Source of the DNA: a virus
Lineage: Duplodnaviria > Caudoviricetes
Direction: 5' to 3' (one strand)
Virus record (IMG/VR): IMGVR_UViG_3300029288_000075
Span: 64,001-128,000 of that record
Length of the DNA: 64,000 nt
Below are positions 4,765 through 62,397 of the stretch, piece by piece. Within the stretch, counting starts at the first letter, position 1; each line of letters starts with the position of its first letter. Made by a program: the position numbers and the translations under genes. The notes below the pieces were generated by a model that was not told the origin of the DNA, ran no database searches, and saw only the letters and a program-made list of their open reading frames with translations.

Positions 4765-6039
4765 ATGCAAACTTCCCCACTGCAGCTCTTCCTCCAACAG
4801 CGCGAAGCGAGACCGGTGGCAGGGCAGCATCTGGAACATCTAGGTAAGGAAGCTGCCACAAACTGGGTGCTTGGGAAATGCGCTTCTCTACATGAGGCGG
4901 CGGTGAACGTACTTCGTGCGGAGCAGCTGTCTCCCGAGCAGGTACGTAGGGTAGTTGAATTTACCAACCAGAACGCGTATCTGCAGGAGTTCCGTAAGGA
5001 AGGCGACCACAAAGTGGTGCATTTCGATTGTGGACCCGCCGACCCTGCTCAAGTACTGCAAGATTTGAATGATGGTGGTGGGGGTTCGTTGTACGATCAG
5101 GGCAACTTGCACCACCGAGCAATCCCGACACGTACGTCTGCACGAGGAGCATCCATGGACAAGACCGCATCCGCCCAAGACCAAGGGATCCCTGGCCTGC
5201 CCAAATTGACCAGGCTGCCGGGCCTACCCAAGGCAGCGTCTGTACCGGAAGAGGAGCTGTGGGGGTTGTTTCAGACCGATGCGTCTGGCGCGCTTCCCTA
5301 CGCCGAACCGCGGCGTCCGTTGATGGACGTGCGCAGTAAACTTGCCGGAGTGCAGGGAGAGTTAGAGGACGCAGTCAATCAGCTCGAGCTGGACTATCAG
5401 GAGGCTTCGAGCCAGTTGTACCATCAGGTGAAGCAGGCGGCGTTGACGGGGGAGAGTTTGGGTTCGATTGTAGCTGCTTGGGCAACTGTCTCGGAAGCTC
5501 CGGTGTTCACGAAGGCGGCGTTTGCCATGCTCACTCCGCTGTTGCGTCATGACGGCGTATTCCCTTCGTTGGACAGCATTGGGGCGTCTTTGGAGAAGCA
5601 GGCTTCAGGCGTGGTGAATGGTGAGCATCCGCTGGTGCGTGCTTACGCAGATTTCGTGAATACGTTGGGCAAGTTGGCTGCAGCACGGGGGTTGCACCAG
5701 GAGTACCTCGAAGGAGTTGCCCTCACAGAGGAGCTGTTGAAAAACGCGGCAGGGGGTGTGGTAGGTGCCGTGAAAGCAACGGGGAAGGGGATTGACGCGA
5801 TCTCCGGTCCTTTGGCACACGCGCTGGTGGGCCCTGCTGACGCAAAGAAAGTGGCGCCGTCGATAGCCCGCGGGTTGAAGCTCACGGCGGGTGGTGCTGC
5901 GGTACTTGGCACCAACGCGGCCGTGCAGAATGTCACTGACCGCCCAGGCGTGCAGCGCGTGCTGCAGGCAGCTAAGTCCACCGTGCCAGGTACCATGGAG
6001 TACCAAAATCGTCGCTATCGCAACATGACGGGGATGTAA
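4765..6039 (+). CDS. Head morphogenesis/internal protein with multiple K-x-A motifs
   Basis: LSPEQVRRVVEFTNQNAYL domain; DKTAS, VKQAA, EKQAS, GKLAA, LKNAA; lies upstream of the protease. Confidence 0.7.
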   Translation: MQTSPLQLFLQQREARPVAGQHLEHLGKEAATNWVLGKCASLHEAAVNVLRAEQLSPEQVRRVVEFTNQNAYLQEFRKEGDHKVVHFDCGPADPAQVLQDLNDGGGGSLYDQGNLHHRAIPTRTSARGASMDKTASAQDQGIPGLPKLTRLPGLPKAASVPEEELWGLFQTDASGALPYAEPRRPLMDVRSKLAGVQGELEDAVNQLELDYQEASSQLYHQVKQAALTGESLGSIVAAWATVSEAPVFTKAAFAMLTPLLRHDGVFPSLDSIGASLEKQASGVVNGEHPLVRAYADFVNTLGKLAAARGLHQEYLEGVALTEELLKNAAGGVVGAVKATGKGIDAISGPLAHALVGPADAKKVAPSIARGLKLTAGGAAVLGTNAAVQNVTDRPGVQRVLQAAKSTVPGTMEYQNRRYRNMTGM

Positions 6040-6044
6040 TTACC

Positions 6045-6635
6045 ATGAACCCAGCAGAAGAGTTCTTGACGGAGAAGAAGGCGTTCGGTCTTGGGGCACT
6101 CACGGGAGCAGCCCGCTCTACGGGTAAAGCAATGTCCCCAGCGGCCAAAGCGTTTGGTTCTGCTGCTGCAGTGGGGGCTGGGGCTGCGGCATTTGCTGGG
6201 CTGGCGGGTGGTGCAAGCAAGCTGTACGCAGCGGCCACCAAGACTCGAGACTTCCGCGCCATGCTGGATGCGAATCCAGACTTGCTACAGCATCAGAAAG
6301 CAGACCCGGCAGGGTTCAATCGCATGTACTCTTCGTTGCGCACATTGGCACCGGAGTTTGCTGCGGAACCGCTGGTAGCTGGCTATTACCTACGTCAAGG
6401 TATGGAGGGCCTCATGGAGGGTCGTGGCGGCGTGTCTGTGCAGGCCATGAATGCAAAGCGTCCTGTGCAGACCGGGCCTATGACGGATGCGGCCTTGCAG
6501 GGGTACATGAGGGGCATGGGTTCGAAGAAGGAAGAGGGTCCTCGACCGCAGTTGGTATCGCAGACGCGACATCGATTCGACCCGGAAACTCAGGGGTGGC
6601 AGCAAACTGAGACCACCGAGAATCGGTACGGATGA
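6045..6635 (+). CDS. Putative internal head protein (K-x-A leader, Gly/Ala hydrophobic segment)
   Basis: MNPAEEFLTEKKAF leader; AAAVGAGAAAFAGLAGG. Confidence 0.7.
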   Translation: MNPAEEFLTEKKAFGLGALTGAARSTGKAMSPAAKAFGSAAAVGAGAAAFAGLAGGASKLYAAATKTRDFRAMLDANPDLLQHQKADPAGFNRMYSSLRTLAPEFAAEPLVAGYYLRQGMEGLMEGRGGVSVQAMNAKRPVQTGPMTDAALQGYMRGMGSKKEEGPRPQLVSQTRHRFDPETQGWQQTETTENRYG

Positions 6636-8320
6636 TCAAGGTCAGTCTCTTCCAGGGCAGCGAGGAGTACGGACCCGCGGCTGTGCCGCTGTTTGGGCCA
6701 TCGGATAGCTACTTCGAGAAGACGGCTTCCGCTACGCTTTTGCCAGAAGTAGCTGACTACATCGCGCACTTGAAGCCGAGGAATGACTCGCAGTACGTAC
6801 TCGTCAACGCCATGGGCGCCGGTGAGTATTACGGCTCCAACGTGAACGGGGATCGCTTTGCAGAGGCTGCTTTGGTACACGCCCCTGCCCGGTGGACAGG
6901 CAAGCCTGTTCACGACATGACGGTAGGAAAGTCTTGGGCCTACGGTTACCCTACGTTCTACGGGGCACATGTTTTTCCGCATCACAAGAACAAGGATCCC
7001 AACCGGGCGCTAGGGACTGTCGAACTGGCGGCGTGGAATCCGCATATGAAGCGTGTCGAGCTCGTCACTAGGCTCGAACACAAGCTGTGCAAGGGATTTG
7101 GCGGTGAAGGGATTTGGGACAAGCTGGTAGCAGGTGAATTTCCTGATGTGAGCATGGGTACCAAGGTGCCCTTCGATACGTGCTCCATTACCTTGGATCG
7201 CGAGCTCTATCAGAAGGCGTGGGATACGTACAATCCCAGCCTGCATCGTAGTCCTGGGGATGCCATTCTTCAGTTCCATAAGAAACTGAAGGCCAAGAAC
7301 GGCGTAGGCATCCGCGGGTTGAGTATCACGCGCGTCGACTACTCAGAGTATGCGCGCCACATGATGAACCAGATCTTGCCAGATGGACGCAAGGTTTGGG
7401 TGGACAATGATTTCCCGAAGTTCTTCGACATTTCGTTTGTGTTCATGGGCGCAGACAAGATTGCCAAGGCCATGCTGAAGATTGCGGCCGGTGGCAAGCG
7501 TGTGTACTCCATCGGCTCGGCAGAGTTGGCAGACAAGCTTGCTGAGTACGACATGATTTGGATTCCAGAGCCTGCGGTCACGGAAAAGACTGCCGGCGTT
7601 TCGAGTATTGAGGACCGCCTGTTGCGGATGGCCGAGCGACGAGGAGAGACGCTCGAGCAGTCGGGAAAGAGCACGGCGAAATCCGCGATGACCAAGGAGG
7701 TCGTTCCCAACCAGCTGGCAGGGAAGGCTGTCCCCCTGCTCACGAGCCAAGAGCGAGATTTGCCGGACAAAGTGCTGGACGAGCTGGCTACTGCTGGGTT
7801 TGGGCCTGCACTTTCTACGGCAACAGGGCTAGGAATTGTGCTCAAGCCTCGCGAGTTTCAGCGTATTACCCTGATTTGCCTGGGTAATCGTGCGGCGGCA
7901 GACGGATTGGACGCGTTAGATCAGGTGTTTCCTCTGTCGTCGGAGAGGGAAGAGCTGCCTCTTGGCCTGGGTGACTTCAGTCCAGCGTTGTCCAGTATCC
8001 TGGCTCCGTTCATGGATTCTAGGTCTTCTCTTGGCCCGCACATCGAGCGGCGCGTAGTCCTTGTGGCAGGTACAACACCTTCGGGTGGTAAAAAGACAGC
8101 TTCCCATTCCTCTGAACTGCTCCGTAAGATTGGGGCTGCCTATAATGGCTATCGAGAAGGCCTCATGCAGTTTGTACCCCATGCGCAAGACTTGATGGAA
8201 GCGACGTCTACTCAAGACGGTCTGCGAAAGCTTGCCGCACTAGCTGCAGAGGAACTATTCACCCCACTGAGCTACCATTACTTGAGCACCGCGTATTTGG
8301 ACGAGGTGACACGTGGGTAG
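6632..8320 (+). CDS. Prohead (capsid maturation) protease
   Basis: GSNVNGDRF, HVFPHHKNKD (His), DVSMG (Ser), FFDISFVFMGAD motifs of HK97/herpes-fold phage proteases; upstream of scaffold and capsid genes. Confidence 0.8.
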   Translation: MIKVSLFQGSEEYGPAAVPLFGPSDSYFEKTASATLLPEVADYIAHLKPRNDSQYVLVNAMGAGEYYGSNVNGDRFAEAALVHAPARWTGKPVHDMTVGKSWAYGYPTFYGAHVFPHHKNKDPNRALGTVELAAWNPHMKRVELVTRLEHKLCKGFGGEGIWDKLVAGEFPDVSMGTKVPFDTCSITLDRELYQKAWDTYNPSLHRSPGDAILQFHKKLKAKNGVGIRGLSITRVDYSEYARHMMNQILPDGRKVWVDNDFPKFFDISFVFMGADKIAKAMLKIAAGGKRVYSIGSAELADKLAEYDMIWIPEPAVTEKTAGVSSIEDRLLRMAERRGETLEQSGKSTAKSAMTKEVVPNQLAGKAVPLLTSQERDLPDKVLDELATAGFGPALSTATGLGIVLKPREFQRITLICLGNRAAADGLDALDQVFPLSSEREELPLGLGDFSPALSSILAPFMDSRSSLGPHIERRVVLVAGTTPSGGKKTASHSSELLRKIGAAYNGYREGLMQFVPHAQDLMEATSTQDGLRKLAALAAEELFTPLSYHYLSTAYLDEVTRG

Positions 8321-8413: not shown

Positions 8414-9163
8414 ATGTCCGGAATCAACGCTCTACTGAACGATGCATACGCAAAGACCGCTGCCACCGCTGAAGATCTCGAGAAGACTGCCCAGCTCGAG
8501 TACTTTGGTGCTCTCTGTGAACGGGAGAGCATCGACGTAGCCCGTCTGGATGACGAGCAAGCCATGAACCTCTTCAAGACTGCGATGGAGATGAAGGCTG
8601 CAGAAGAAGAGGCCGCCAAGGAAGAGAAGAAGGAAGAGGGCAAGGAGGGTAAGAAGGCCCCTCCATTCGGTGGTCCTGCGCATGAAGCCAAGGAAACTCC
8701 CAAAGAGGAGAAGAAGGAAGAGAAGGCCAAGGAAGCCGCCGTGCAAGAGTGGCAGTCCAAGGTTGCCGAGGCGCGATCCGCGTATGAGGCGACTGTGGCC
8801 GGCCGTCTTATGGCAGATGCGTTCATCGACCAGATGCAGAAGCGCGCTGCGGCGGGTGAGGCGGGCGCTGCTGGAGATGCGGCGCGTGCGGTCATCGAGC
8901 AGGCAAAGATTGCATCGGCTGCCCCTGCTCGGTCGGATACTCCTTCGATCGATTTCGTTGCGGGCAACCGCGCCATCGACCTTCTCAAGGAGGCCGGCTA
9001 CGACGCGGACGAGGTAGTGAGCAAGGTCAACGCCATCTACACGCTGGGGCTGCCCGCCAGTACCAAGCTTGCTTCTGTGCCAGACTTCAACAGCGCTGTA
9101 GAGATGCGTGCCCTCGAGATTTGTGAACTTGCTGGCGCGTCGGTGGATTGGAGCAAGGTCTAG
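8414..9163 (+). CDS. Scaffold-like protein
   Basis: AGGAG SD; E/K-rich helical; AKTAA, EKTAQ, QKRAA, AKIAS, TKLAS. Confidence 0.65.
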   Translation: MSGINALLNDAYAKTAATAEDLEKTAQLEYFGALCERESIDVARLDDEQAMNLFKTAMEMKAAEEEAAKEEKKEEGKEGKKAPPFGGPAHEAKETPKEEKKEEKAKEAAVQEWQSKVAEARSAYEATVAGRLMADAFIDQMQKRAAAGEAGAAGDAARAVIEQAKIASAAPARSDTPSIDFVAGNRAIDLLKEAGYDADEVVSKVNAIYTLGLPASTKLASVPDFNSAVEMRALEICELAGASVDWSKV

Positions 9164-11603: not shown

Positions 11604-12722
11604 ATGTCCGTTCCGGCGAGTGTACTGAACGAGCTCTTTGCTTCGAAACTCAGCACGAGTGAAGGCAAGGAAAAGATCGCCGAGTATGGTGGTAGTTACA
11701 TTCGAGACCGCCTCCGCGAGGTGAGCTTTGCCCGCAAAGTCATCCCGCCGGAGCAGGTCACGCGTGCCGACTGCCAACGCTCGGTGAACCACGACACCTT
11801 GGTCAAGATTGTCGACGTGGAGCCCAAGAGCCGCGCCATGGCAATTTCGTTCCGAGGGCAACCGACAGCCCGCTTCATTCGAGGCGAAAAGGCCGAGGTC
11901 GCATTCTTCACCATCAGTTCCGAGATGTTCCAGAAGACGGAGCAGGAGCTGTTGGCCTACGAGATGCCCATCACCAAGATCATCGAAGAGAACTCGGTGA
12001 AGGACATCCAGGAAATCGAGGACCGCGAGTTCACGATCCACGTTGAAGCCGCCGTGCAAGCGTTGCAGACGGAAGCCAATGGTGGGACTCCCACTGCGCT
12101 GCACGTCGGCACCATCGGTACTACCGTGGAGTTCTCGGTGCGCAAGGGTGAGCTTGCTCGCAACGCCGCAGCGAACACGGCGGAGGTTCTCCCGGTCAGC
12201 CGCGTGGACATCGTCGCCCTGTTCAAGATGTTGGACGGGAATCGTCTGCGGTCCGAGCGGTTGCTCATGACCGAGATGGACTGGGACGACATCTTGTCTT
12301 GGACGGTGGAAGACTTCGGTGACCGTATTCAGTCCGAAACGACTGTCGACGGCTACAAGTACAACACCATTCTTGGTCGTGCGTACATTCGCACCATCAA
12401 GACGGACATCCTGCGCCCCGGCAACATCTACACCTTCGCCAAGCCGGAGTTCTTCGGGAAGTTCTACGTCCTGAACAACACCAAGTTCTACATCGACAAG
12501 ATCGCCAACACGATCACCTTCCAGGCGTGGGAAGACATCGGTATGTCGGTCATCAACATCGCGGCGGTCCGCAAGCTCGAGCTCTACTCGGGCGATGCAA
12601 ACCCCACGACGAACGCAGACGGCCTCCTCGACAACTTCATCCCGAGGTCCGAGGACGCGCTGGGTGCGGTCAACAACCGTGTGGATGCGGGCCTCAAGTT
12701 CCCGCAGGTTTCGCAGTACTAG
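11604..12722 (+). CDS. Major capsid protein (HK97-like fold)
   Basis: 372 aa; AAGGAG SD; strongly biased codons; IRDRLREVSFARKVIPP...IQEIEDREF pattern; followed by a terminator. Confidence 0.8.
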   Translation: MSVPASVLNELFASKLSTSEGKEKIAEYGGSYIRDRLREVSFARKVIPPEQVTRADCQRSVNHDTLVKIVDVEPKSRAMAISFRGQPTARFIRGEKAEVAFFTISSEMFQKTEQELLAYEMPITKIIEENSVKDIQEIEDREFTIHVEAAVQALQTEANGGTPTALHVGTIGTTVEFSVRKGELARNAAANTAEVLPVSRVDIVALFKMLDGNRLRSERLLMTEMDWDDILSWTVEDFGDRIQSETTVDGYKYNTILGRAYIRTIKTDILRPGNIYTFAKPEFFGKFYVLNNTKFYIDKIANTITFQAWEDIGMSVINIAAVRKLELYSGDANPTTNADGLLDNFIPRSEDALGAVNNRVDAGLKFPQVSQY

Positions 12723-15059: not shown

Positions 15060-16744
15060 TGGATGCCTTTCAAGTAGGGTTGAGTCGTGGGATCCCCGCA
15101 AAGACGGCAGCAGCCTACTTCGTGGGGTTGAAGAGCTGGCAGTCGCTTTCTCCGGAAAACGACGAGCTCATGGCAGCTTGCGTCAAAAAGGCGGCAGTAC
15201 TGACTGGTGCTTCAACGCAGCCCGGCACTTCGAAGACAGCCGCGCTACTCGAGAAATTCCGCAAGATCGCGGCAGAGGAGTCCACCCACCACGCTGGGGA
15301 GATGGCTACTCCAGCGCCTGCTGACGATGACCCCGCACAGCAGTATGCAGCAAACGAGCAGCAGGCTATGCAGGCGGAAGAGCAGAATGCGGCCGCCTAC
15401 TACCAGCAGGCTCTTCAAGGGCTGCGTGCGCAGCTGGCTGACATGCAGGAGCATTCGCAGTCCCTCGAGCAGCAGAATGCACAATTGACGGAGCAGCAAG
15501 CCGCGCACGACACTGAAGTGCAGAATGCCCAGCAGGAGGTGCAGCTGGCGCAGCAAGCGGCGCTCGAGCAAACCCAAAGTGCCGCGGCACAAGCGACTCA
15601 GTCCATGCAGCAAGCTGTGGATGCTGAGAACCGCGCCCTGCAGGCCAAGTCTCAGGAAGCGGCAGCCAAGATTCAGCAGCAGCAGGTGCGCAGTCAGCTC
15701 TTCGACCTGGCGTCCCAGGGGTTGCCCGGGTCAGAGCCCCAGATTGGAGAGGGTGCCGCGGCAGAGGGGCTACAGCCCACTCAACCAGCGGCGCAGCCGG
15801 GGGCAGAGCCGGGAGCAATGCCCGGTGAACAAGGTGCCCCTCCGGGGGCAGAGCCGGGGGCACCAGCTGCGGCCGGCGGAGAGACCCCCAGCGCTGGCAT
15901 GAATGAAGCTGGTCAACCCGCGAATGCCGAAGGAATGCCGGGTCAGGAGGCTTCAGCCGAGACGGCTGGCGCCGCGGCGCCGCCCGGATCTGTGCAACCT
16001 TCGGGTGATTCATCTGGTGGCGCCGGCGCGGGGTCGGGGACTGGTCCACAGGCGGCATCCGAGGGTGACCCTCAGAATCCCACGGCCAAACGAACAGGCC
16101 AGGTGTCCATCAAGGTAGGTGGTGCCAGTCCGGTGTCGTACGGCGACGTAGTCGCGTTCTTGGGGGGACGCCACGGCCGCCCTTTACCCGTGCAGGGTAA
16201 GGTTGCCGGTGTAGGCTCTGCCGCCAAGGAGTGGGCACTCAAGAAGGTATTGGAGTCGCCTGTAGTGAAGGAGCACGAGCAACGGCTGGTGCGTAATGCG
16301 TCACTCGCAGCAGGTGGTTCAGCGCTTGCTGGAGGGTACGCCGGGCATCGTATGGCTGCCCACAAGGATCAGAACAAGACGGCAGGTGTCCTTCAGAATC
16401 CATCGGTTGTTGGTGGACTCGCCGGTGGTGCCCTTGGATTAGGCTTGGGTGCGATGGAAGCAACGGGGCATGGCCCGGATTTGGAGAAGTTGCGCACCAA
16501 GGTCGAGGGGCAGGAAGCACAGCTGAAGCAACCTGGTCTGCGCAACTTTGGGCAGGCCTTCAACGTCGTGTACAACCGGATGCTCCTGACGCACGGAGAA
16601 GCAGTGAAGAGCCATCCCGTGTTGGGTACGTTGGCCAGCGGTGCTGCTGGTGCGGCAATGGGGGCTGAGGCAGGGCACGAATTTCCTACACTACTTCGCG
16701 AAGCGAAGGGGTGGCATGCAATGGGACGACCGCCGGTAGGCTAG
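15059..16744 (+). CDS. K-x-A polyprotein: Gln-rich coiled coil, P/G linker, two Gly-zipper modules
   Basis: AKTAA, VKKAA, SKTAA, RKIAA, GKVAG, NKTAG; GGLAGGALGLGLG. Confidence 0.7.
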   Translation: MDAFQVGLSRGIPAKTAAAYFVGLKSWQSLSPENDELMAACVKKAAVLTGASTQPGTSKTAALLEKFRKIAAEESTHHAGEMATPAPADDDPAQQYAANEQQAMQAEEQNAAAYYQQALQGLRAQLADMQEHSQSLEQQNAQLTEQQAAHDTEVQNAQQEVQLAQQAALEQTQSAAAQATQSMQQAVDAENRALQAKSQEAAAKIQQQQVRSQLFDLASQGLPGSEPQIGEGAAAEGLQPTQPAAQPGAEPGAMPGEQGAPPGAEPGAPAAAGGETPSAGMNEAGQPANAEGMPGQEASAETAGAAAPPGSVQPSGDSSGGAGAGSGTGPQAASEGDPQNPTAKRTGQVSIKVGGASPVSYGDVVAFLGGRHGRPLPVQGKVAGVGSAAKEWALKKVLESPVVKEHEQRLVRNASLAAGGSALAGGYAGHRMAAHKDQNKTAGVLQNPSVVGGLAGGALGLGLGAMEATGHGPDLEKLRTKVEGQEAQLKQPGLRNFGQAFNVVYNRMLLTHGEAVKSHPVLGTLASGAAGAAMGAEAGHEFPTLLREAKGWHAMGRPPVG

Positions 16745-16753
16745 GAGAGTGTC

Positions 16754-18580
16754 ATGTTGAACGAATACTTGCTGCGTGCATACAGGCAGACTCAAACCAA
16801 GGAGGCGAGTCGTCAGCTACAGGAGAAGCTCGCTAGGTTTCCCTTGCAAGACTTGATTGCCTTGGCGAGTGGAGATCCGACTGCGAAGTTGGCGTATTGC
16901 GATGGTCCTTGCGAGGCGAATGAGCCCAAAACTTGGTTGGACAAGTTCAAGGGATCCCCGCTGTTCGAGAAGGCAGTGTCCTTGGAGAAGACGTTGCTTG
17001 AAGCGGATGCGGCGTCTGATGCCAAGAGGTCAGAGGAGCGTGAAACCGACCGCGAGCTCGATGCGCGCCGTGACGAGCTCCGTATGCAGAAGCGGCTGCT
17101 TGACTTGGACCTTGCCCTCGAGCAGGAAGGGGCGGCGGCTCCTGCGGAAGCTGCAACGGCAGCGCCCACGGCACAGGCTGAACCGGCCCCAATAGGCGGT
17201 GGTACAGCCGTTGAGGTGAAGCAGGCTTCTTCCTCGCACAACTCCGCGCACGTGATGGAGTTCTATCGCAAGCGGGCGGAATTCTTGAAGATTGCCGGAG
17301 CCGTAGGCGCGTTCATTCCCGAGACGCGAAGTACGGGTAGGGTACCAGCGACGGATAGAGCGCAGGGCGCCGGCGCGGGCGAGTACACCGTCGACCCGTC
17401 GGAGGTAGTTACTGGCGGGTTGCAGGTGGACAAAGTGGCAGCTCTTCAGTCAGCAGACAAACCTAAGGTGGATCCGCAGGAGCTGCGGAAGAAGATCCTT
17501 CAGGAGTACCCGCACCTCGATAAGCGGGCTGATTTTGGTGGTTTTGACACGCCAGAAGAGCACCAGCAGGCGGTGGATGCGCTAAAGGCGCAGGCGGCGC
17601 AACAAGAGGCGCATCCAGTGTCTTCTCGTATTCGTTCGGGTCTTGGTACAGCGGCTGTAGGGGCACTAGGTGGATCTATGCTTGGTGGCGCAGCTTATCC
17701 TGGTGTACGGGGAACCTTGGTTGGTGCAGGTCTTGGTGCACTCGGTGCAGGTGCATACGGTGCAACTCGAGTACCAGGGGCAGAAGCTAGGCGTGAGGCG
17801 ACTGCACTGGAAGATGAAGTGCGTCCGGAGGCACTCAGGAACGAGGCTGCCGAAAACGAGAGGATTGCAGACGACGTTGATGCCAACCCCGGCAAGTACC
17901 GTTTGCGGCGAGGTATCGCAGGGGGCATTGCAGGGGGTCTAGCGGGCGCGGGTCTTGGCAGCTTGGTGCCTAGGAGCGTGGGAGCTCCGTTACTAGGTGC
18001 TGGTGTTGGTGCTCTCACCGGTGGGGGCCTTGCAGCCTTGCGTAAGCCTGACGGTGCAGCATTTCGTGAGGATGCTGCTACGATGCGAGCCCATTTGGCA
18101 AAGAAGCAGGCCAATGTGCTGGATGCCGAGGCGCGGGCGCACATCAAAAAGAAGAACTTCGCCATACCCGAAGAGAAGAAGTACCCAATCGAAAACAAGC
18201 CCCATGCTGAGAATGCGCTATCGCGGGTCGACACCTTTGGTACCTCTTCGGAAAAGTCTCGCGTGCATTCGGCAGTTGCCCGGCACTACCCCGGGTTGGC
18301 TGCGCGCTCGAGCGTTCCGGACGTGGCCTCCAAGGGCAAGGCACAGCTGCGAAAGAAGGCAATGAATCTGGGAGGGATCCTCCAGGGTGCCAAGAGCATT
18401 GGGTCCAGTGCACGGAATCTGGCTGTTACGTCCCATGCGGCGGGCGGGTTACCCCAGGTGGCCAAGTCATTTGGCAACGTAGCAAAGGGCTTCGTCATGA
18501 AAAATCCACTGGCAGCCGCCGGCGCAGCGGGTCTTGGCGGTGCAGCGTTGGGCAGGGCCACTGCCCCAAGTAGACCCTAA
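16754..18580 (+). CDS. K-x-A polyprotein with duplicated Gly-zipper module and a DUF6582-like domain
   Basis: TKEAS, AKLAY, VKQAS, LKIAG, DKVAA, DKRAD, KKQAN, RKKAM; NFAIPEEKKYPIENKPHAENALSR. Confidence 0.7.
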   Translation: MLNEYLLRAYRQTQTKEASRQLQEKLARFPLQDLIALASGDPTAKLAYCDGPCEANEPKTWLDKFKGSPLFEKAVSLEKTLLEADAASDAKRSEERETDRELDARRDELRMQKRLLDLDLALEQEGAAAPAEAATAAPTAQAEPAPIGGGTAVEVKQASSSHNSAHVMEFYRKRAEFLKIAGAVGAFIPETRSTGRVPATDRAQGAGAGEYTVDPSEVVTGGLQVDKVAALQSADKPKVDPQELRKKILQEYPHLDKRADFGGFDTPEEHQQAVDALKAQAAQQEAHPVSSRIRSGLGTAAVGALGGSMLGGAAYPGVRGTLVGAGLGALGAGAYGATRVPGAEARREATALEDEVRPEALRNEAAENERIADDVDANPGKYRLRRGIAGGIAGGLAGAGLGSLVPRSVGAPLLGAGVGALTGGGLAALRKPDGAAFREDAATMRAHLAKKQANVLDAEARAHIKKKNFAIPEEKKYPIENKPHAENALSRVDTFGTSSEKSRVHSAVARHYPGLAARSSVPDVASKGKAQLRKKAMNLGGILQGAKSIGSSARNLAVTSHAAGGLPQVAKSFGNVAKGFVMKNPLAAAGAAGLGGAALGRATAPSRP

Positions 18581-19898: not shown

Positions 19899-20811
19899 TT
19901 TCAAGGATGAGCCGCTGCAGCAAGTTCGGCTCATGTACTTGGGATTTGTCGCGGGGCTCTTCTCCGCTTGCCCAAAGGGACAGTACCACTGGGAAGAGGG
20001 TGATGACACGGAGATTGTGGTCACCGACGAGCATCCGATACGCACGGAAAATGTAGGAGCGCGCCCGGCCGTATCGTTTACGCGCAGCCCTGTGCAGTTC
20101 TACTCGCTGGGCAACGATGACATGCTGCGGTTTGACTTCACCACTGGGCGCAAGACAAAGGTAGCCATAATTCCGGGCACGATGAGCATCAACTGCTGCT
20201 CGCGCAATGACCTTGAAAGCGAGAGTATCGCCTGGAAGATTGCCGAGCATCTGTGGCTTCTTCGTGAGACGTTGATGGGGTACGACAAGTTCTTCGAAAT
20301 AGGGAGACAGCCACAACTATCGGCCACGTCGCCTGCAGAGGGGATAGTACAAGGCGACCATGGAGAGGAGTGGTACTGCACTACCGTTTCATCTCCCTTC
20401 CAATTCCCGCGCATGTCTCAGTTCACCCCACTCAACAAGCAGGTGGTGCAGAGTATCGAGCTGCAGATTCGCACGCGGCTGCTGACGATAGGCAGTCAAA
20501 GTACCGGCGGCCCTGTGGCAAGCGCGAATGGTGCAGATCCAGGGTTGAACTTTCAGGTGAGACCGCCCCCTGGGTACATGCAGGAGGCGTCGGATGCGCA
20601 TGGACGGCGTCCAGACCCAGCGGGATTGCTGCCTGATCCTCCGTTTTTTGCGGCACATCCATTGGACCCCGCGAGGACGGTGGTGGTACGGAGGTCCAAG
20701 CCGTATAGGCCGGGCCTGCGACCGCTATCCATGAATGGTCATCGACTTCCCATAGCCGACAGCAGCGTGGAAGAATCGGTACCGTCACCGCCATACAAGA
20801 CGCGAGTATGA
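19846..20811 (+). CDS. Putative tail terminator/completion protein
   Basis: RPAVSFTR...MSINCCSRNDLESESIA pattern; upstream of the sheath; GTG after GGGAG. Confidence 0.55.
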   Translation: MPSKPTRVTPRGVASEDSFKDEPLQQVRLMYLGFVAGLFSACPKGQYHWEEGDDTEIVVTDEHPIRTENVGARPAVSFTRSPVQFYSLGNDDMLRFDFTTGRKTKVAIIPGTMSINCCSRNDLESESIAWKIAEHLWLLRETLMGYDKFFEIGRQPQLSATSPAEGIVQGDHGEEWYCTTVSSPFQFPRMSQFTPLNKQVVQSIELQIRTRLLTIGSQSTGGPVASANGADPGLNFQVRPPPGYMQEASDAHGRRPDPAGLLPDPPFFAAHPLDPARTVVVRRSKPYRPGLRPLSMNGHRLPIADSSVEESVPSPPYKTRV

Positions 20812-55786: not shown

Positions 55787-57205
55787 ATGGCTGTCCCGAC
55801 TCTTGTGACGCCGTTGCTTACCCTACTGGTCAAGGTGTCCGCTGCACGTTCTCGCATGACCGTGTCGCAGACGCGGTCAGGCAGACGCCCGATGCGTGTG
55901 GAGACCATGCTCAAGAAGGACAACGAGGGTACCCTGTATCGCAATTGGAAGGATCACATACCCGGCGGATTGGCAGACAAGAAGAAGCCCACTGATTTCG
56001 ATCCTGCTGCGTTGGCCAAAGGTACCAAGGTGGAGTTCGAGCACACCGACAGGCTGCTTACTGCGTCTGAGATTGCCATGGACCACCTTGTCGAGGACCC
56101 TCGGTACTACGACAAACTCGAGAAGATGGAAGAGGGTGGGGCTAAGCATGCTGGTTTGTTGGATGTGTTGAAGGCTCCTATTCCTGGGACCAAGGACTGG
56201 TTCGTGAACACCGGTAAAGCTGGACTGCAGGGAGCTCATAGACTCACGGGCACCATGCCTGCGCGTCCCGGGGCATTGCGAACTGCAGCGAATTCGGTGG
56301 CTCCTGCAGCACGGGCGTCAGGGGCTCTGCCTGTTGCACGTGGCGGGGTGTACGGGATCTCGGAAGCGGAGCTGCAACGTCTAGGCTTTGGGGATTTGAT
56401 GAAGTCGGGGTCTGCTAAAAAGGTCGAAGACCTGAAGAAGGCGGCCTATCGTCTGCAAGGTCACACGGAAGTACAGGGACTTCCAATCGCCATCGAAAAT
56501 AGAAAGGGCTCTGTGCGGTCTGGCGAGGACCCAGACGGCACCCCGTGGCGCACGAAGTACAAGTACCCTTACGGTTACCTCGTGGGTACCAAGGGAAATG
56601 ACGACGAAGAGATTGATGTCTACGTAGGTCCCAACAAGGCAGCCCCCAACGCGTACGTAGTACATCAGCACAAGGTCACTGGCAAAGGCTACGATGAAGA
56701 CAAGGTGATGTTGGGTTTCGAGTCGGAAGCAGCTGCTAGGGCGGCGTACCTCGAGCACTACAACAAAGTTGGACCAAAGCTTCTTGGTCCCATCACGGTC
56801 ATTGCCATGAAGCGGCTGATAGAGATGCTGGCGCAGAAGAAGGAGTACAAGAAGCTGGCCACAGCCGACATATCCAACAATACGCTGATGACGGACCGAG
56901 CGGGGCCAACTACACGTAGCAAGCCTGGTGATGTACCAGACGCTATGGATGTGGCATTCTCCAAACTCAAGCAAGCATGGGATGGCGTTGGCTCTAGTGG
57001 AGGTCCTACCGGAAACAGAATGGCCATGCTTGACATGGATGAGAAGCCCGATCGAACAAAGCCGGGTGATGTACCATCACGGGATGGAACCAGTCCCGGC
57101 GCCGCACGCATCGAGCGGCATGAGGCAGGGCCGGATTTCATGACCACGTTACCTACGAACGGCGCCATGGCTAGTTCTCAGACCGGAGCAACTACGAGGC
57201 TTTGA
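55787..57205 (+). CDS. K-x-A polyprotein with DUF5661-like and inorganic-pyrophosphatase-like (InPase) domains
   Basis: GTKVEFEHT..EIAMDHLVEDPRYYDKL; IENRKGSVRSG..YGYLVGTKGNDDEEIDVYVG..YDEDKVMLGF. Confidence 0.75.
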   Translation: MAVPTLVTPLLTLLVKVSAARSRMTVSQTRSGRRPMRVETMLKKDNEGTLYRNWKDHIPGGLADKKKPTDFDPAALAKGTKVEFEHTDRLLTASEIAMDHLVEDPRYYDKLEKMEEGGAKHAGLLDVLKAPIPGTKDWFVNTGKAGLQGAHRLTGTMPARPGALRTAANSVAPAARASGALPVARGGVYGISEAELQRLGFGDLMKSGSAKKVEDLKKAAYRLQGHTEVQGLPIAIENRKGSVRSGEDPDGTPWRTKYKYPYGYLVGTKGNDDEEIDVYVGPNKAAPNAYVVHQHKVTGKGYDEDKVMLGFESEAAARAAYLEHYNKVGPKLLGPITVIAMKRLIEMLAQKKEYKKLATADISNNTLMTDRAGPTTRSKPGDVPDAMDVAFSKLKQAWDGVGSSGGPTGNRMAMLDMDEKPDRTKPGDVPSRDGTSPGAARIERHEAGPDFMTTLPTNGAMASSQTGATTRL

Positions 57206-58068
57206 TGCAATACTCAGAAGTCCAGTGGGCATCGTTCAGCGAGCAGCTAAGCAAGGAGGCTTTTTCGTTAGCTGGGATGGGGTCTACCTTGCGCGGTGCG
57301 CTGGGTTCCTCTATGGGAAAGGCCAAGGCCCCGACGGGGTGGATTCTGCCGAGTAGGAAGGGGTTGGCTCTGGGTTCTGCTGCGAAGCCCGGTGCAAGCA
57401 TGTTTCCTGCCCCTGGTGGTGTGGCCGCAACCCCAGGTGTATTTCAGTCTTTTGGCAAATCACTGCAGGAAGGCGGCAAGCTGATGCAGCGAGATTCGAC
57501 CAAGAGCCTACTGGCAGGTAAGTCTGTGTCGGCTGGTCCCGCCGCACGCATGGGGGGTGAGGTGGCGCAGTCGGTAGGGCACCACTACGCACACAAGGGT
57601 ACCTTAGGAAACCTCGTCAACCCACTAGGCGGTGCCCTGGGTGGGATGGCCGAGGGGATCACTCGCGGGGCTGGTAAAGAGTTGACCCGTGGAGCTGGTG
57701 CCCTAGGCGCGCATGGGCCGGCGGCTTTGCAGGGTACAGCGCGCACCATGGGTAGATTTGGCACGGGCATGCAACGAGCAGCCAAGGGCGTTGGTATGGC
57801 CGGTGAGGTAGCGGGGCTAGCCGGACTTGGTACGGCCGTACACGCTCCGCTGTCTTTGGCTGGTGCCGTCGGCGGGAAGATTGTGGGCGGGGCATCGCAA
57901 GCTCTCCCCATACTGACCGACGCACTGCACAGCGCCGGCGACGTAGTGGCGCATGGCGCGCACGACGTAGTGGGCAACGCGGCGCATTCAGCAGCAGGAA
58001 AAGTGCAGAGTGCTGCCAAGCGGTCATTGCCCTCGATGAGTCCACAACTTGTTCATGGAGTACCCTGA
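57205..58068 (+). CDS. K-x-A leader, Gly/Ala-rich protein
   Basis: WASFSEQLSKEAF; Gly zippers. Confidence 0.65.
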   Translation: MQYSEVQWASFSEQLSKEAFSLAGMGSTLRGALGSSMGKAKAPTGWILPSRKGLALGSAAKPGASMFPAPGGVAATPGVFQSFGKSLQEGGKLMQRDSTKSLLAGKSVSAGPAARMGGEVAQSVGHHYAHKGTLGNLVNPLGGALGGMAEGITRGAGKELTRGAGALGAHGPAALQGTARTMGRFGTGMQRAAKGVGMAGEVAGLAGLGTAVHAPLSLAGAVGGKIVGGASQALPILTDALHSAGDVVAHGAHDVVGNAAHSAAGKVQSAAKRSLPSMSPQLVHGVP

Positions 58069-58544
58069 TGTCCATCACCTACGACGAAGCTCTGCACGAT
58101 TGTCTTGTCGATGCACTAGGGAAGCTGGCAGGTCAATGTGGCTTGAAGGTCGCCGAGGTTTCTTCAGAAAGAGCCCGTCGAGCCATGGATCGTCTGAGTT
58201 CCATGGAAGACACCAAGCCCACGGTGGGTCAGGTGGCGCGTTACGCAGGTATTGGCGGTGGCGGTGGCGCGGCTGTCAAGGCCATCGGCAATGTGATTGA
58301 GGGGTACAAGAAACCCACGGTTCCTGGGGTCAAAGGACACCTGTTGGCCTTGGGTAGGGCAGCCGTGAAGGGGGACGTGAACAAGACGGTAGGCTCCAAG
58401 ATCCGCTCCGTAGCATCTACCGGGATCACTGGGGCTCTGGGGGCAGGGGTAATCCCACTTGCTCGCAGCGGTAGTGACCGTGCAGCAGAGCGGAAGGTTC
58501 TCAAGAAGTACATTCAACAGACTCCAGCGGTGCCCAATGCCTGA
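58068..58544 (+). CDS. K-x-A leader, Gly-rich protein
   Basis: CLVDALGKLAG, LKVAE. Confidence 0.6.
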   Translation: MSITYDEALHDCLVDALGKLAGQCGLKVAEVSSERARRAMDRLSSMEDTKPTVGQVARYAGIGGGGGAAVKAIGNVIEGYKKPTVPGVKGHLLALGRAAVKGDVNKTVGSKIRSVASTGITGALGAGVIPLARSGSDRAAERKVLKKYIQQTPAVPNA

Positions 58545-59718
58545 GTGGATGCACAATCGAGCCGAGCACATACTTGCCAAGAATCCTTCGATGCCCAAGT
58601 CGGAGGCCTTTGCCATTGCAACGCAGCAGAGCCACGCTACAGGGCATTCTCCAAAGGGGTTTGGTACAGCCGAGGGAAGAGCGAAAGCCAAGGCCAAGTT
58701 CGATACTCCCAAGGGTGACGAGCATCGGGCGAATCCAGGTAACTTGACGAGCTCCAAGATGGCCGCGGCGGCGTTTACGCATGTAGTGTCTGTGCGTACC
58801 ACGCGTGATGGTGCCGGCGCTTTACGTGACATCCTGCACAACATCCAGCAGAATGGTGCCCCCGGGCACTCCTTTGGGATAGTAACGACGGATAAGCCCG
58901 CGCGCCACATTGGAAGTTGGGATGGGGATGGCGCCGATACAATGGCTCTTCCTACCATGCACAAGATGGCGTCCGTAGTAGGCTGGTTGTTGGAGTCTAC
59001 TGGGTTGCTAGGGAAACTTGGCTTTGCCAGCTCCTCCTACGGGGGTCAGCCGGCACAAAATGGTCCTGGAATGCGTGGACGTAGCCAGATTCCACCCTTC
59101 GTGGCTCCTCCCATTGAGGTGAAGGCAGCCGGGCTGCGGCGCGTGGGAGAACTGGTTACAGGTAGTCGAGCGAACAAGCTCTACGACGCTGCGCTTCGTC
59201 ATGCCGATTCTGCTCGAGGAGGTAGTGCAGCAAGCGCAAAGGCCGTTCGAAAACTGCGTGGGCTTGCCCACATGGAAGAGGGAAACGTGGGGCGTATGCA
59301 GGGTGCCTTGGCTACAGGTGCTGGCATTGGGGCTGTAGCGGATCTCACTGGTTTTGCGGAGAGACGTGCCAAAGCTAAGGAGGCAGGCGTGGGTGTGGGC
59401 GCCGGGATGTCTGCTTCGCAGTACTCTGGGCCGCTCTCATATGGTCCATTCAAGCAAGAGAGTGCGATTCCTGCATTCATTTCTCCGGGCATGACCAAGA
59501 CGGACCCGCGGTTGGAAGCGCCCGCCTACGCCACCGGTGGCAACAAGACTGCTGGTGCGGCAACGGGGGCCATGACGGCGGCCGGTCGTCTTCGGGCAAG
59601 TCAACGACTCACCGCACCAAAGCTTACTGGGTTTTCTGGCCCTAGCATCGCGGACATTGCTAAGCCAAAGGGCTTTGGAAAGCCGCTGTCGGGGGCACTG
59701 AAAGGTACTCTCGGATGA
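58537..59718 (+). CDS. K-x-A polyprotein
   Basis: SKMAA, HKMAS, GKLGF, VKAAG, AKEAG, NKTAG; N-terminal KSEAFAIATQQ module. Confidence 0.65.
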   Translation: MPEWMHNRAEHILAKNPSMPKSEAFAIATQQSHATGHSPKGFGTAEGRAKAKAKFDTPKGDEHRANPGNLTSSKMAAAAFTHVVSVRTTRDGAGALRDILHNIQQNGAPGHSFGIVTTDKPARHIGSWDGDGADTMALPTMHKMASVVGWLLESTGLLGKLGFASSSYGGQPAQNGPGMRGRSQIPPFVAPPIEVKAAGLRRVGELVTGSRANKLYDAALRHADSARGGSAASAKAVRKLRGLAHMEEGNVGRMQGALATGAGIGAVADLTGFAERRAKAKEAGVGVGAGMSASQYSGPLSYGPFKQESAIPAFISPGMTKTDPRLEAPAYATGGNKTAGAATGAMTAAGRLRASQRLTAPKLTGFSGPSIADIAKPKGFGKPLSGALKGTLG

Positions 59719-60116
59719 CTCCTGCGGCTATCTCTGCATGCTGCAGGGAGCTTACCAAGGTTGCTCTGCTCGAGCGCCTGGTACGTTTGGGCGCTACCGA
59801 TATCCCTCGAACGCCTCGACTTCTCATGAAGCACAGAGACCCTAAGGCGCTGGCGGCGTTGCAGCAGGCAACTGAGACGGCGTGGGACTCAAGGGTTACC
59901 GCGCCCCTGATGCGGGCTGCTGATCGAGGGCTACGGCATCTTCCTGAAGGCAAGGCTCGCAACTTGGCCACCTCCGGTGCGCGGTTGTTGGCCGAAGATC
60001 CTGTTGGATTTACGGTCACGAATGCCATACCAATACCGGGAGCTTCTCCTGCTTGGATCGCGGCCAAAAGGGGACTTGAACGCGTGATTGACAAGACTGC
60101 GCCTCTGCAAGTCTGA
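59715..60116 (+). CDS. K-x-A leader protein
   Basis: ISACCRELTKVAL. Confidence 0.6.
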   Translation: MTPAAISACCRELTKVALLERLVRLGATDIPRTPRLLMKHRDPKALAALQQATETAWDSRVTAPLMRAADRGLRHLPEGKARNLATSGARLLAEDPVGFTVTNAIPIPGASPAWIAAKRGLERVIDKTAPLQV

Positions 60117-60168
60117 CATGTAGCAGGCATAAGGACTCTGTATCAGAGATCCTACCTGTTGGAGGAAC

Positions 60169-60756
60169 ATGCGCGTATGCCCTGTTTTACTAGGCTATTT
60201 GAGTGGCCTGAGAAAGCACATTGACTTTGATTCTCCTCTGAACGAATTCGGTTTGCCCACCCAGGAGGAACTGGAAGAACGGTGCAAAGCCCAACTGGTG
60301 TCAGAGGCTACTTCACACTTGCGCGGATTCTACTGCGTACAGGAGACGCTTGCTAGGCTGGCACTGCGCTGGCCAGCTGCGGTTCTCATGCCAGAGATGC
60401 CCAAGGCGAGCATGTCGGCGTACTACTTGATGCAGGTCGTATCTTGGGTACGAGAGGTAGAGGATCTTCTTGCCGGCAATGCGTTGGAGACTGCGGTCAT
60501 GCAACGTACGCTACCTCTGCAGGAGACCGGAGGAGGGCAAGTACATCAGCAAGATGCTGAGAGGGCGTCTAGGCTTTGTTCGTACCTTGTGTTGGAGGCC
60601 ATGCCCCTACGCAGGTCCCTCAAGGACAGACGCACAAGTTTGCGGCGGGTTGGTCACTACTATGCCCGCGTGCTATTGGATGTTGGGACTAGCGTTGCCG
60701 CTGCTCATAGAGAGGCGTTGGCATTGAGCCAGAACGTGGAGGAGAAGTATGCCTGA
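60169..60756 (+). CDS. Hypothetical protein
   Basis: GGAGGAAC SD; upstream AGGCATAAG promoter variant. Confidence 0.55.
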   Translation: MRVCPVLLGYLSGLRKHIDFDSPLNEFGLPTQEELEERCKAQLVSEATSHLRGFYCVQETLARLALRWPAAVLMPEMPKASMSAYYLMQVVSWVREVEDLLAGNALETAVMQRTLPLQETGGGQVHQQDAERASRLCSYLVLEAMPLRRSLKDRRTSLRRVGHYYARVLLDVGTSVAAAHREALALSQNVEEKYA

Positions 60757-61108
60757 AGCTAGCGCGGAAGAGCTTCCCAGCTTGTTGCTTGAGGTGCGTG
60801 AGTCGAGCACAGCCAAGAACAAGCAAGGTATGTTCGTAGGGGCTATTCAGCTGGTCTGCGTCACCCGTGACGAAGGGATCTTTGATGCCGCGGTGCAGTA
60901 CTTGGACGGCTACAAGATGTATGGCTCTACATCGGAGGAGGTGATACAGGCGTTGACGGCCGAGTTGCATGACGTGGAGGAGACTCAGGCTTCTCTGCTA
61001 GTTCGTAATGGCCTGCTCGAGCGCCGTATACGGGAAAAAGACGCCAGAATAGCTCAGCTCGAGCGTCTTCTGGGCGCCTTGGGCACGGACCTGGGCTTTG
61101 ACGACTGA
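60749..61108 (+). CDS. Coiled-coil hypothetical protein
   Basis: GGAG SD. Confidence 0.55.
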   Translation: MPEASAEELPSLLLEVRESSTAKNKQGMFVGAIQLVCVTRDEGIFDAAVQYLDGYKMYGSTSEEVIQALTAELHDVEETQASLLVRNGLLERRIREKDARIAQLERLLGALGTDLGFDD

Positions 61109-61132
61109 GCGTTGTACACTTGTCGGAGGCAA

Positions 61133-61588
61133 ATGGCACATTCAAGTACAGACGATTACCCCGTTCGCATCACTTCTCCCGACTACAAGACGGCTGACCG
61201 CAGTGAGTTGGAGGCGTGGCTTAGAAAGGAAGCTGCAGCTGTAGCTGGAGGGGTCAAGCCTGAGGACAACGAGGATTCTACAACCGCTCAATACAGCGAG
61301 TTGTACGAGCCTCCAGCTGGCGCAAAGAAGCTCGTAGAGACTGCCCTCCATACGACGTACCCTAATGGGGCAGCCTCGCAGGCCACGCAGCGTGAGGTAC
61401 TGGACGGCGCATTTGCCAGTACACCAGCTACAGCCAAGGCAGAGCAAGCGCTACTTAGCGCAAATTTCGAACATGCGCGCACTGGAGACTTCGAAACGCA
61501 AGCGCCATTGCTACGTGGCGAGCGCGCGAAGGGTAAGGTAGCGCACTTTCTGTCAGACCGTACGCACTTGCTGGGGCTTGGGAAGTGA
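61133..61588 (+). CDS. Hypothetical protein
   Basis: TACACT -10, GGAGG SD; coupled to the sigma gene. Confidence 0.6.
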   Translation: MAHSSTDDYPVRITSPDYKTADRSELEAWLRKEAAAVAGGVKPEDNEDSTTAQYSELYEPPAGAKKLVETALHTTYPNGAASQATQREVLDGAFASTPATAKAEQALLSANFEHARTGDFETQAPLLRGERAKGKVAHFLSDRTHLLGLGK

Positions 61589-62340
61589 ATGCAGCTGACG
61601 AATTCCTAGAGACCAAGCAGAAGACCGCCGCGGCTCGAGCCGCGCAGGATCTTCATCTTTGGCATGCGTGGGATCAAGGAGGAAGGACACCTCAGCTGCT
61701 GGAGCCACTGCTGTCCAGGTACGACTCGCTCATGAACCGTAGGGCGAATGACTGGCGTGCCCCTACGGTGGCCCCGGCGGCATTCAAAGCTGAGCTGCAT
61801 AAGCAGTTCATTCAAGCAGCACACTCGTACGATCCTGAGCGTGGTGTGGCCTTCAACACACACGTGCAGTCTCGTTTGAAGAAAGCTCAGCGGTTCAACG
61901 CCAAGCACCAAAACGTGGGGTACATACCTGAGGACTTGTCCAGACACGTAGGTCCCATGGAGCGTGCCAAGAACGAGCTTACGGACCAGTTCGGACGTCC
62001 CCCCACTACGGTGGAACTTGCGAATCACATGGGCTTGCCGCAGCGTAAGCTCACTGCGCTAATTACTCAGCTACGAAGGGATGTGCCATCGTCGCATTTC
62101 GAGTCAGATCCCACGACGCTATCCACGGGTAGGGAAGCAGACGTGGTTCGTTTGATGAAGCGCAGACCGGAGGAGTACCTGACACCCGAGGAAGTACGGG
62201 TATTTTCTCACATCTACGGCATCAACGGTGCTCGGAAGATTACGGATACGACGTCGTTGGCCACCCAACTTGGGTTGAGTCAACCAAAGGTCTCACGCTT
62301 GAAGACCTCAATCGCGAAGAAGGTTCAGCAGTACCTCTGA
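61585..62340 (+). CDS. RNA polymerase sigma factor, sigma70 family (FliA/WhiG/SigF-like)
   Basis: Region 2 YDPERGVAFNTHV, region 3 FGRPPTTVELANHMGL, region 4 LTPEE...LATQLGLSQPKVSRLK. Confidence 0.85.
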   Translation: MNAADEFLETKQKTAAARAAQDLHLWHAWDQGGRTPQLLEPLLSRYDSLMNRRANDWRAPTVAPAAFKAELHKQFIQAAHSYDPERGVAFNTHVQSRLKKAQRFNAKHQNVGYIPEDLSRHVGPMERAKNELTDQFGRPPTTVELANHMGLPQRKLTALITQLRRDVPSSHFESDPTTLSTGREADVVRLMKRRPEEYLTPEEVRVFSHIYGINGARKITDTTSLATQLGLSQPKVSRLKTSIAKKVQQYL

Positions 62341-62368: not shown

Positions 62369-62397
62369 AGGCGACGTGCGTCAGCACGCCGCCTTTT
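62369..62397 (+). terminator. Intrinsic terminator after the sigma gene
   Basis: AGGCGACGTGC-GTCA-GCACGCCGCCT-TTT. Confidence 0.6.

Follow-up and report, generated by a model that had tools for sequence, protein, structure and literature searches.

A phage sigma factor and a head-module protein share an N-terminal leader peptide that may tie a phage transcription system to the capsid

Reviews divide large phages into those that supply their own sigma-less RNA polymerase (RNAP) and those that supply the host enzyme with sigma factors only (PMC7598289, PMC13282480). The phage considered here belongs to a clade that combines both, a polymerase of its own and a sigma factor. Our subject is the sigma-70-family gene at 61585..62340 of a 64,000-nucleotide stretch of DNA (the window), which comprises bases 64001-128000 of a single 187,857-bp phage contig (IMG/VR record IMGVR_UViG_3300029288_000075; G+C content 57%). 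The N-terminal leader peptide of this sigma factor closely matches that of a head-module protein, the product of open reading frame (ORF) 6045, and we consider whether the sigma factor may be carried in the virion.

Phage-encoded RNAPs that travel in the head and are ejected for the transcription of early genes are known from phiKZ-like phages, N4 and others; for the present phage such carriage is a proposal. The N4 virion RNAP is a single-subunit enzyme, unlike the bacterial-type RNAP here. The multisubunit RNAPs of phiKZ, SPN3US and 201phi2-1 have been reported without a sigma-70 homologue (PMC7824862, PMC13282480), whereas the polymerase of this phage is close to the bacterial type, is found with a bona fide sigma factor and occurs as one set instead of a virion and non-virion pair. 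The virion RNAP of SPN3US enters the prohead as a pre-assembled multimer, and the 201phi2-1 virion RNAP's beta subunit has an N-terminal propeptide (PMC5694885), so that a complex brought into the head by one tagged subunit would not be without precedent.

The only cultured relative found is Salmonella phage Arash (OQ632216), whose virion proteome has been determined by mass spectrometry (PMC10585845). The Arash RNAP proteins Gp206 (128 unique peptides, 3516 spectra) and Gp216 (40 unique peptides, 1210 spectra) were the most and the fifth most detected proteins, and the sigma factor Gp10 was represented by 24 unique peptides and 467 spectra; the values for the portal were 32 and 877, and for the major capsid protein (MCP) 30 and 1333. 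By our arithmetic on these data, the number of spectra per residue is about 2 for each of Gp10, Gp206 and Gp216, which equals or exceeds that of the portal, and these equal values fit a stoichiometric complex of the sigma factor and both RNAP parts. The products of gp220, gp221 and gp222, to which we return below, were all detected as well. The Arash authors noted the sigma factor, with no test of delivery and no follow-up. A preliminary description of the present locus had named no described virion-delivered sigma factor, and in this it had missed Gp10. Arash resembles the present phage in having a homologous sigma factor (about 30% identity), RNAP, portal, MCP and protease-like protein, and its sigma gene also lies among virion genes on the same strand. 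It differs in that its sigma factor begins at the core, its RNAP is split into two genes, as opposed to one fused protein of 2131 amino acids here, and it has a second sigma factor (gp196), whereas a sigma-family search detected no second one in the genome of this phage.

The second described system that bears on the locus is the capsid-targeting sequence (CTS) of the T4 internal proteins IPI-III, MKTYQEFIAE (bioRxiv 10.1101/2021.01.19.427310). Residues 4 and 7 of the CTS matter most for targeting, residues 8 and 10 for processing; the protease gp21 cleaves after L/I-x-E, and an Asp at position 10 stops cutting but not targeting (PMC9026906).

The central gene of the locus is the following.

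61585..62340, + strand: gene for a sigma-70-family factor of 251 amino acids with regions 2, 3 and 4

The gene starts with GTG, overlapping the stop codon of the upstream ORF as GTGA, and the start is confirmed by relatives that begin at the same M-N. Region 3 is matched by Pfam Sigma70_r3 (PF04539) with 30.8 bits (cut-off 25.3), and the protein is also matched by phrog_351; the Pfam region 2 model on its own stays below threshold. A profile built from 61 homologues finds SigA (E 4.9e-15), RpoD, SigF and FliA in the PDB over residues 12-251, and residues 3-252 of chain 8x6g_H correspond to these same residues, so regions 2 and 4 are covered over the full length. The AlphaFold2 (AF2) model is all-helical with three domains (mean confidence, pLDDT, 88.5). 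Because the Pfam, PHROG, PDB and AF2 results agree, the identification is sound, and judged by its sequence the ORF is a full sigma-70-family factor. In size (about 250 amino acids), in the succession of regions 2-3-4 and in having no region 1.1 it resembles Group-3 sigma factors (FliA/sigma-28, SigF), from which it differs in being phage-encoded and in having about 20 extra N-terminal residues in common with a head protein. A protein search gave 104 homologues of the sigma factor and 45 of ORF 6045, mostly from metagenomic contigs of 186-203 kb. Sequencing runs with matching DNA are landfill and groundwater metagenomes, and no RNA run is listed among them. The only Pfam Sigma70_r4 match in the genome is the helix-turn-helix of an HNH homing endonuclease (3030-3671) that adjoins the terminase gene; this protein is not a sigma factor.

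The main result concerns the first residues of the sigma factor, MNAADEFLETK, and of ORF 6045, MNPAEEFLTEK.

61585..61632, + strand: leader peptide at the N-terminus of the sigma factor (MNAADEFLETKQKTAA), the N-terminal part of a helix of residues 3-31 in the AF2 model

6045..6086, + strand: leader peptide of ORF 6045 (MNPAEEFLTEKKAF), whose F7, L8 and E10 are in register with the T4 CTS

The close match between the two, proposed in the preliminary description, is borne out by several independent comparisons. The pattern N-P-[AV]-[EDQ]-[ED]-F-L-x-x-[KR] is kept in 94 of the 104 sigma homologues and N-P-[VA]-E-E-F-L-x-E-K-[RK]-A in 42 of the 45 homologues of ORF 6045, in both families down to about 36-40% overall identity; the possibility raised earlier, that relatives might not conserve the leader, is thereby answered. 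Matrices were built from one family without this phage and scored on about 290,000 non-self six-frame positions of the genome. The matrix of the ORF 6045 leader ranked the sigma N-terminus first among all these positions, and the reverse test had the same outcome. Alignment of the two families by hhalign covers 14 N-terminal columns only (E 5.9e-5), for which reason we rejected the possibility that the two proteins are paralogues. In five further complete genomes, a degenerate DNA pattern for the leader gave exactly two exact matches each, the sigma gene and the ORF 6045 homologue, and reversed-pattern controls gave zero; two one-mismatch matches were found in the five genomes, neither of them a gene start. 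No other carrier was found in this genome, in the flanks of 70 related loci or in the five complete relatives. With two carrier genes per genome, the leader is a two-member signal and not a general cargo tag. The leader codons differ at synonymous sites among relatives, which points to selection on the peptide and led us to reject an RNA-level element as the cause of the likeness. The N-terminus of the phage RNAP, the third-best matrix match, was also rejected as a third leader: it aligns with the conserved first helix of the bacterial beta subunit, and clades both with and without the sigma leader show it in other forms.

The leader appears to be a separable module, for three reasons. In a more distant sigma clade N-P-[IV]-S-D-F-L-K-[FY]-A lies at the very N-terminus, and about 50 inserted residues follow before the D-L-x-L-W core; still more distant sigma factors, including those of Arash and Vibrio phage D69, begin at the core without any leader; and in ORF 6045 the leader is modelled as a short helix (residues 3-15) joined by a disordered, Ala/Gly-rich stretch to a well-predicted helical domain. 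The insert of the distant clade consists of a basic hairpin-like motif and an acidic linker. The motif, V.AH.RR..GK.V.V..H.R, is present in the sigma factors of L021, L025-L027, L029, L030, L032 and L033; it matches no Pfam family and was not found elsewhere in the DNA searched. In the AF2 model of the present sigma factor the leader runs without a break into the sigma core, as the first part of one long helix predicted with confidence.

The second carrier is part of a head module whose gene order (ORFs 4765, 6045, 6632, 8414, 9212 and 11036, then the MCP gene at 11604) is strictly conserved.

4765..6039, + strand: head-module protein of 424 amino acids whose N-terminus (MQTSPLQLFLQQREA) is leader-like; remotely homologous to Arash virion protein gp220

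6045..6635, + strand: ORF 6045, head-module protein of 196 amino acids; leader helix, flexible Ala/Gly-rich linker and conserved helical domain

6632..8320, + strand: putative prohead-protease-like protein; tblastn matches to Arash gp222 and Vibrio phage D69

8414..9163, + strand: scaffold-like charged protein between the protease-like gene and the MCP gene; N-terminus MSGINALLND, with L8-x-D10

11604..12722, + strand: MCP, matching phrog_2522 and, by tblastn, Arash MCP gp226; N-terminus MSVPASVLNE, with L8-x-E10

The AF2 model of ORF 6045 has a helix at residues 3-15, disorder at 16-45 and a helical part at 46-158; a fold search with it against viral and PDB libraries returned nothing usable. 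ORF 4765 and ORF 6045 are remote homologues of Arash gp220 and gp221, and synteny backs both assignments. ORF 6632 looks like a prohead protease, to go by a set of leads: an invariant His and Ser in its family, intein-like insertions after its DVSMG motif in two relatives, and Peptidase_S77 and S80 as the nearest named Atlas clusters (0.90-0.91). In the relatives L069 (10516-13341) and L070 (10795-13503) the protease-like gene encodes 900-940 amino acids and has an insertion directly after an invariant DVSMG; the insertion in L069 begins CFKAG and resembles an intein at the presumed active site.

The gene order of this module is similar to that of the T4 core genes: ORF 6045 directly precedes the protease-like gene, and the scaffold-like and capsid genes follow downstream. 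The peptide itself resembles a CTS in that it is found at the extreme N-terminus of otherwise unrelated proteins, one of them from the head module. It is about 10 residues long and in ORF 6045 follows the register E6-F7-[IL]8-x-E10. The residues at positions 7, 8 and 10 compare as follows.

T4 CTS, MKTYQEFIAE: F, I, E

ORF 6045, MNPAEEFLTE: F, L, E, in register with the T4 CTS

MCP, MSVPASVLNE: V, L, E

ORF 8414, MSGINALLND: L, L, D

Sigma factor, MNAADEFLET: F, L, T

The leader also differs from the T4 CTS: there are two carriers per genome, one of them a transcription factor, the sigma copy is usually without the cleavage glutamate, and only 4-5 of 10 residues are alike. Its targeting role is putative, and the protease family is a lead. 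The L-x-E site is present in 37 of 42 ORF 6045 homologues, whereas the same column has E or D in 20 of 94 sigma factors, and the present one reads L-E-T. Processing of the sigma factor by the prohead protease, as supposed in the preliminary description, is therefore doubtful, and under a T4-like protease rule ORF 6045 would lose its leader while the sigma factor would probably retain it. The L8-x-[ED]10 patterns of the MCP and ORF 8414 are kept in relatives. As a separate observation, the MCP (11604-11633), ORF 8414 (8414-8443) and ORF 6045 (6045-6074) all have hydrophobic-Leu-x-[ED] at residues 7-10, which may mark short propeptides cut by one protease. Four proteins, namely the sigma factor, ORF 6045, ORF 8414 and the protease-like protein, also have a conserved K-x-A triplet following the helix; it is too short to weigh alone, and as a general motif it was dropped as too loose for a test of its own.

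The genome encodes a polymerase that the sigma factor may serve, located by tblastn with the Arash RNAP subunits.

L085:8188-14583 (genome 52188-58583), about 5.4-11.8 kb upstream of the window start: fused bacterial-type beta-beta' RNAP of 2131 amino acids

Its Pfam domains are Rpb2_3, Rpb2_6 (E 1e-53), Rpb1_1, Rpb1_2 (E 2e-29) and Rpb1_5 (E 2e-17), and it is present in a single copy, so that the phage has an RNAP of its own. A search with the first 400 residues gave 810 matches in metagenomes at E<=0.001. The RNAP is present in all 12 checked genomes that carry this sigma family, namely the present one, ten from IMG/VR (leader-bearing and leaderless clades) and Arash. Since it co-occurs in every checked genome and no second sigma factor is detectable, the sigma factor most plausibly serves the phage polymerase instead of the host core, and we regard this pairing as very probable. 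The earlier suggestion that it redirects host core RNAP, as a light alternative to virion RNAPs, is thus not supported: the genome has its own fused beta-beta', the sigma family always occurs with it, and its homologues Gp206 and Gp216 are among the most detected proteins of Arash particles. Many of the RNAP homologues listed have 2400-2980 amino acids and an extra homing-endonuclease-type domain (PF14528), which may mark inteins, and a second HNH homing endonuclease (L085:16486-17007) lies downstream of the RNAP gene.

The sigma gene is the last of a four-gene unit with its own signals.

60106..60133, + strand: phage-type promoter TGCAA-N15-GGCATAAG heading the four-gene sigma unit

60169..61588, + strand: three small genes of 195, 119 and 158 amino acids (ORFs 60169, 60749 and 61112), the last overlapping the sigma start; co-transcribed with the sigma gene

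62370..62397, + strand: GC-rich hairpin followed by UUUU, likely an intrinsic terminator (-26.8 kcal/mol, z -2.8, more stable than each of 200 shuffled sequences)

The three small genes have no Pfam or PHROG match and are arranged in the same way in relatives. Relatives L002 and L004-L008 keep the promoter about 1.5 kb upstream of the sigma gene, and in L010 it directly precedes the gene. Host promoters of sigma-70 type are no more frequent near the gene than in shuffled sequence. With a conserved promoter and a terminator of its own, the sigma gene does not merely end a late structural operon, and the timing in the preliminary description, which had the sigma factor made late, is unproven. 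The same description had placed the gene on the strand of the structural genes, which is correct, and just downstream of the cargo cluster, which holds for its position, although the conserved promoter lies between.

About 20 sites in the genome fit xGAAA/xCAAA-N15/16-GG[GCT]ATAAG, usually followed by a strong ribosome site; copies in the window include 3994(-), 45241(-), 46225(-), 46443(-) and 60126(+). The strongest are followed by a near-identical 5' leader, AAAGGTAGAGGAGGAAC..ATG, and head small leftward operons, among them one for a GNAT acetyltransferase and one for MoxR-like AAA and VWA/metallopeptidase proteins. The sigma-28 consensus is TAAA-N15-GCCGATAA. The candidate promoters are sigma-28-like, with a -35 xGAAA, an extended -10 ending in GATAA and similar spacing, and we infer their assignment to this sigma factor. 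From these motifs, the sigma factor most likely recognises the roughly 20 promoters TGAAA-N15/16-GG[GCT]ATAAG, that of its own unit included. If it does read its own promoter class, a pre-existing sigma factor would be needed, which favours delivery in the virion; the alternatives are cross-recognition by a host sigma factor or read-through from upstream. The upstream region of the polymerase gene differs from the sigma-unit promoter region. There (L085:8135-8190) no Shine-Dalgarno sequence is present and a TATACT hexamer ends 10 nt before the ATG; the RNAP mRNA may be nearly leaderless, with a promoter of another type. Between the portal and RNAP genes (L085:4058-6681, - strand) lies a gene pair for a MoxR-like AAA ATPase and a DUF2201 VWA/metallopeptidase, with a GGGATAAG promoter.

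We propose the following explanation, to which as a whole we assign a probability of roughly 0.35. The sigma factor would be the promoter-specificity subunit of the fused beta-beta' RNAP; polymerase and sigma factor would be incorporated in the head and pass into the next host along with the DNA, allowing transcription to start without host factors. The conserved N-terminal helix of 10-15 residues (N-P-x-E-E-F-L..K), common to the sigma factor and the head-core protein ORF 6045, would act as a docking peptide that ties the sigma factor to the prohead interior as the T4 CTS does, and the polymerase would ride in bound to sigma, or sigma bound to the polymerase. The ORF 6045 peptide ends in a T4-type L-x-E site and that of most sigma factors does not, and the sigma leader would probably be retained. 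The parts of this proposal differ in strength. We put packaging of the sigma factor in the particles of this phage at slightly better than an even chance and, given packaging, a targeting role of the leader is probable. The fullest version is doubtful: a portable peptide of about 12 residues would load the sigma factor, and through it the beta-beta' holoenzyme, into the prohead, and the injected holoenzyme would bootstrap all phage transcription from the sigma-28-like promoters, that of sigma itself included. Of the interpretation given in the preliminary description, in which the sigma factor is packaged and delivered, the role with host RNAP is not supported; what stands is a leader shared with a head-module protein, the presence of the Arash homologues of both proteins in virions, and an InPase/DUF5661 module nearby. 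Taken together, these make virion carriage plausible, with indirect published support.

Several observations weigh against the proposal. The case for carriage in this phage is drawn from its gene sequences and from a distant relative. In the sigma model the leader is rigid, one helix with the core, and a structural or RNAP-contacting role may apply instead. There are two carriers per genome, unlike T4 with its several internal proteins, and the RNAP itself has no convincing leader. The two leaders do not co-vary within genomes (p 0.3, 10 genomes, low power), and in the distant clade the head-protein N-terminus has drifted (for example RQYLLEKLGA) while that of the sigma factor has not, so the pair is not always alike. 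ORF 6632 has no Pfam match (E<=5) and no PDB match with a 10-sequence profile, and its protease family is not established. Finally, the sigma factor detected in Arash particles is leaderless, so that packaging there does not require a leader, and the Arash preparation was purified by sucrose gradient only, with 116 of 272 proteins detected, including ribonucleotide reductase, primase and ligase (PMC10585845).

This last point bears on a different explanation, in which the protein is an ordinary intracellular sigma factor for the phage or host polymerase with no functional part in the virion. Its N-terminal helix would then be regulatory, for instance an on/off switch site used late by the prohead protease or a host protease, with ORF 6045 as a co-substrate. 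The contamination of the Arash proteome with non-structural enzymes would agree with this, as would the promoter and terminator that set the sigma gene apart from the structural operons, and the L-x-[ED] or K-x-A motifs at head-protein N-termini are consistent with one shared protease. However, the replication-type enzymes of the Arash preparation are mostly represented by 2-11 unique peptides (PMC10585845), against 24 for its sigma factor; the acidic residue needed for cleavage is found only in the minority of sigma factors counted above; and a self-dependent promoter would leave the start of transcription unexplained. We regard an intracellular role as rather unlikely. It is very unlikely that the likeness has no common function at all and reflects N-capped amphipathic helix starts, of which N-P-x-E-E is a common form, kept independently in the two families. 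The peptide is short, and the RNAP N-terminus ([DN]-P-x-E-A-F), merely the conserved first helix of a beta subunit, matches it more weakly. Against coincidence stand the reciprocal top matches among about 290,000 positions, the hhalign E-value, the retention of F-L and K beyond the capping box in two families across wide divergence, and the two exact matches with zero control matches in each of the five further genomes.

The remaining explanation agrees with the proposal in giving the peptide one function in both proteins, and places that function on the polymerase. The peptide would be an RNAP-binding helix, an extra anchor of the sigma factor on beta-beta', and the ORF 6045 copy would grip the polymerase core at the same site, either tethering the core in the prohead or competing late with the sigma factor. 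The polymerase would then be packaged by way of ORF 6045, and the sigma factor need not itself be packaged. Exactly two carriers per genome, one a sigma factor and one a head protein, agree with this; the leader extends the first sigma helix at high confidence, and the long flexible tether of the ORF 6045 leader would suit an adaptor. The strong detection of Gp206 and Gp216 in Arash virions, although the polymerase has no leader of its own, also agrees with it. But neither contact prediction nor co-variation supports such binding, the Arash sigma factor belongs to the same RNAP system and has no such helix, and the sigma factor is itself detected in Arash particles. The T4 CTS register and the L-x-E site of ORF 6045 fit a head-core propeptide better. 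RNAP binding is thus an unlikely account, and docking to the head core is favoured for the role of the peptide; either function would link the transcription machinery to head assembly.

Should virions contain the sigma factor, this would be the first demonstrated delivery of a sigma-70-family factor alongside viral DNA, and a peptide-loaded holoenzyme would amount to a self-contained, virion-borne transcription system of bacterial style with a targeting tag of its own. Through the shared leader, the sorting of transcription machinery into the capsid would be simple to approach by experiment, and the peptide, if sufficient for targeting, could be a packaging tag outside the T4 system.

The sigma unit lies at the border between a virion module and a metabolism module. 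Upstream of it are large virion-type proteins with weak similarity to Arash gp6 and gp8, as well as the module mentioned above.

55787..57205, + strand: DUF5661 and InPase protein (Pfam InPase E 1e-38, DUF5661 E 9e-12), a packaged-protein module of polyvalent type

The PHROG relatives of this protein are a minor head protein, a virion structural protein and DarB-like polyvalent families. Downstream of the sigma gene are genes of unassigned function, followed by nucleotide-metabolism genes. In the relative L002 (5223-8507) a LAGLIDADG endonuclease and an SNF2-family helicase replace ORFs 57202-59718, and the cluster upstream of the sigma unit is therefore variable. In L001, whose sigma factor is 41% identical, a Ro60/TROVE and vWA protein (15767-17521) and an ORF matching ribosomal protein S12/S23 (20238-20666) both lie less than 10 kb from the sigma gene.

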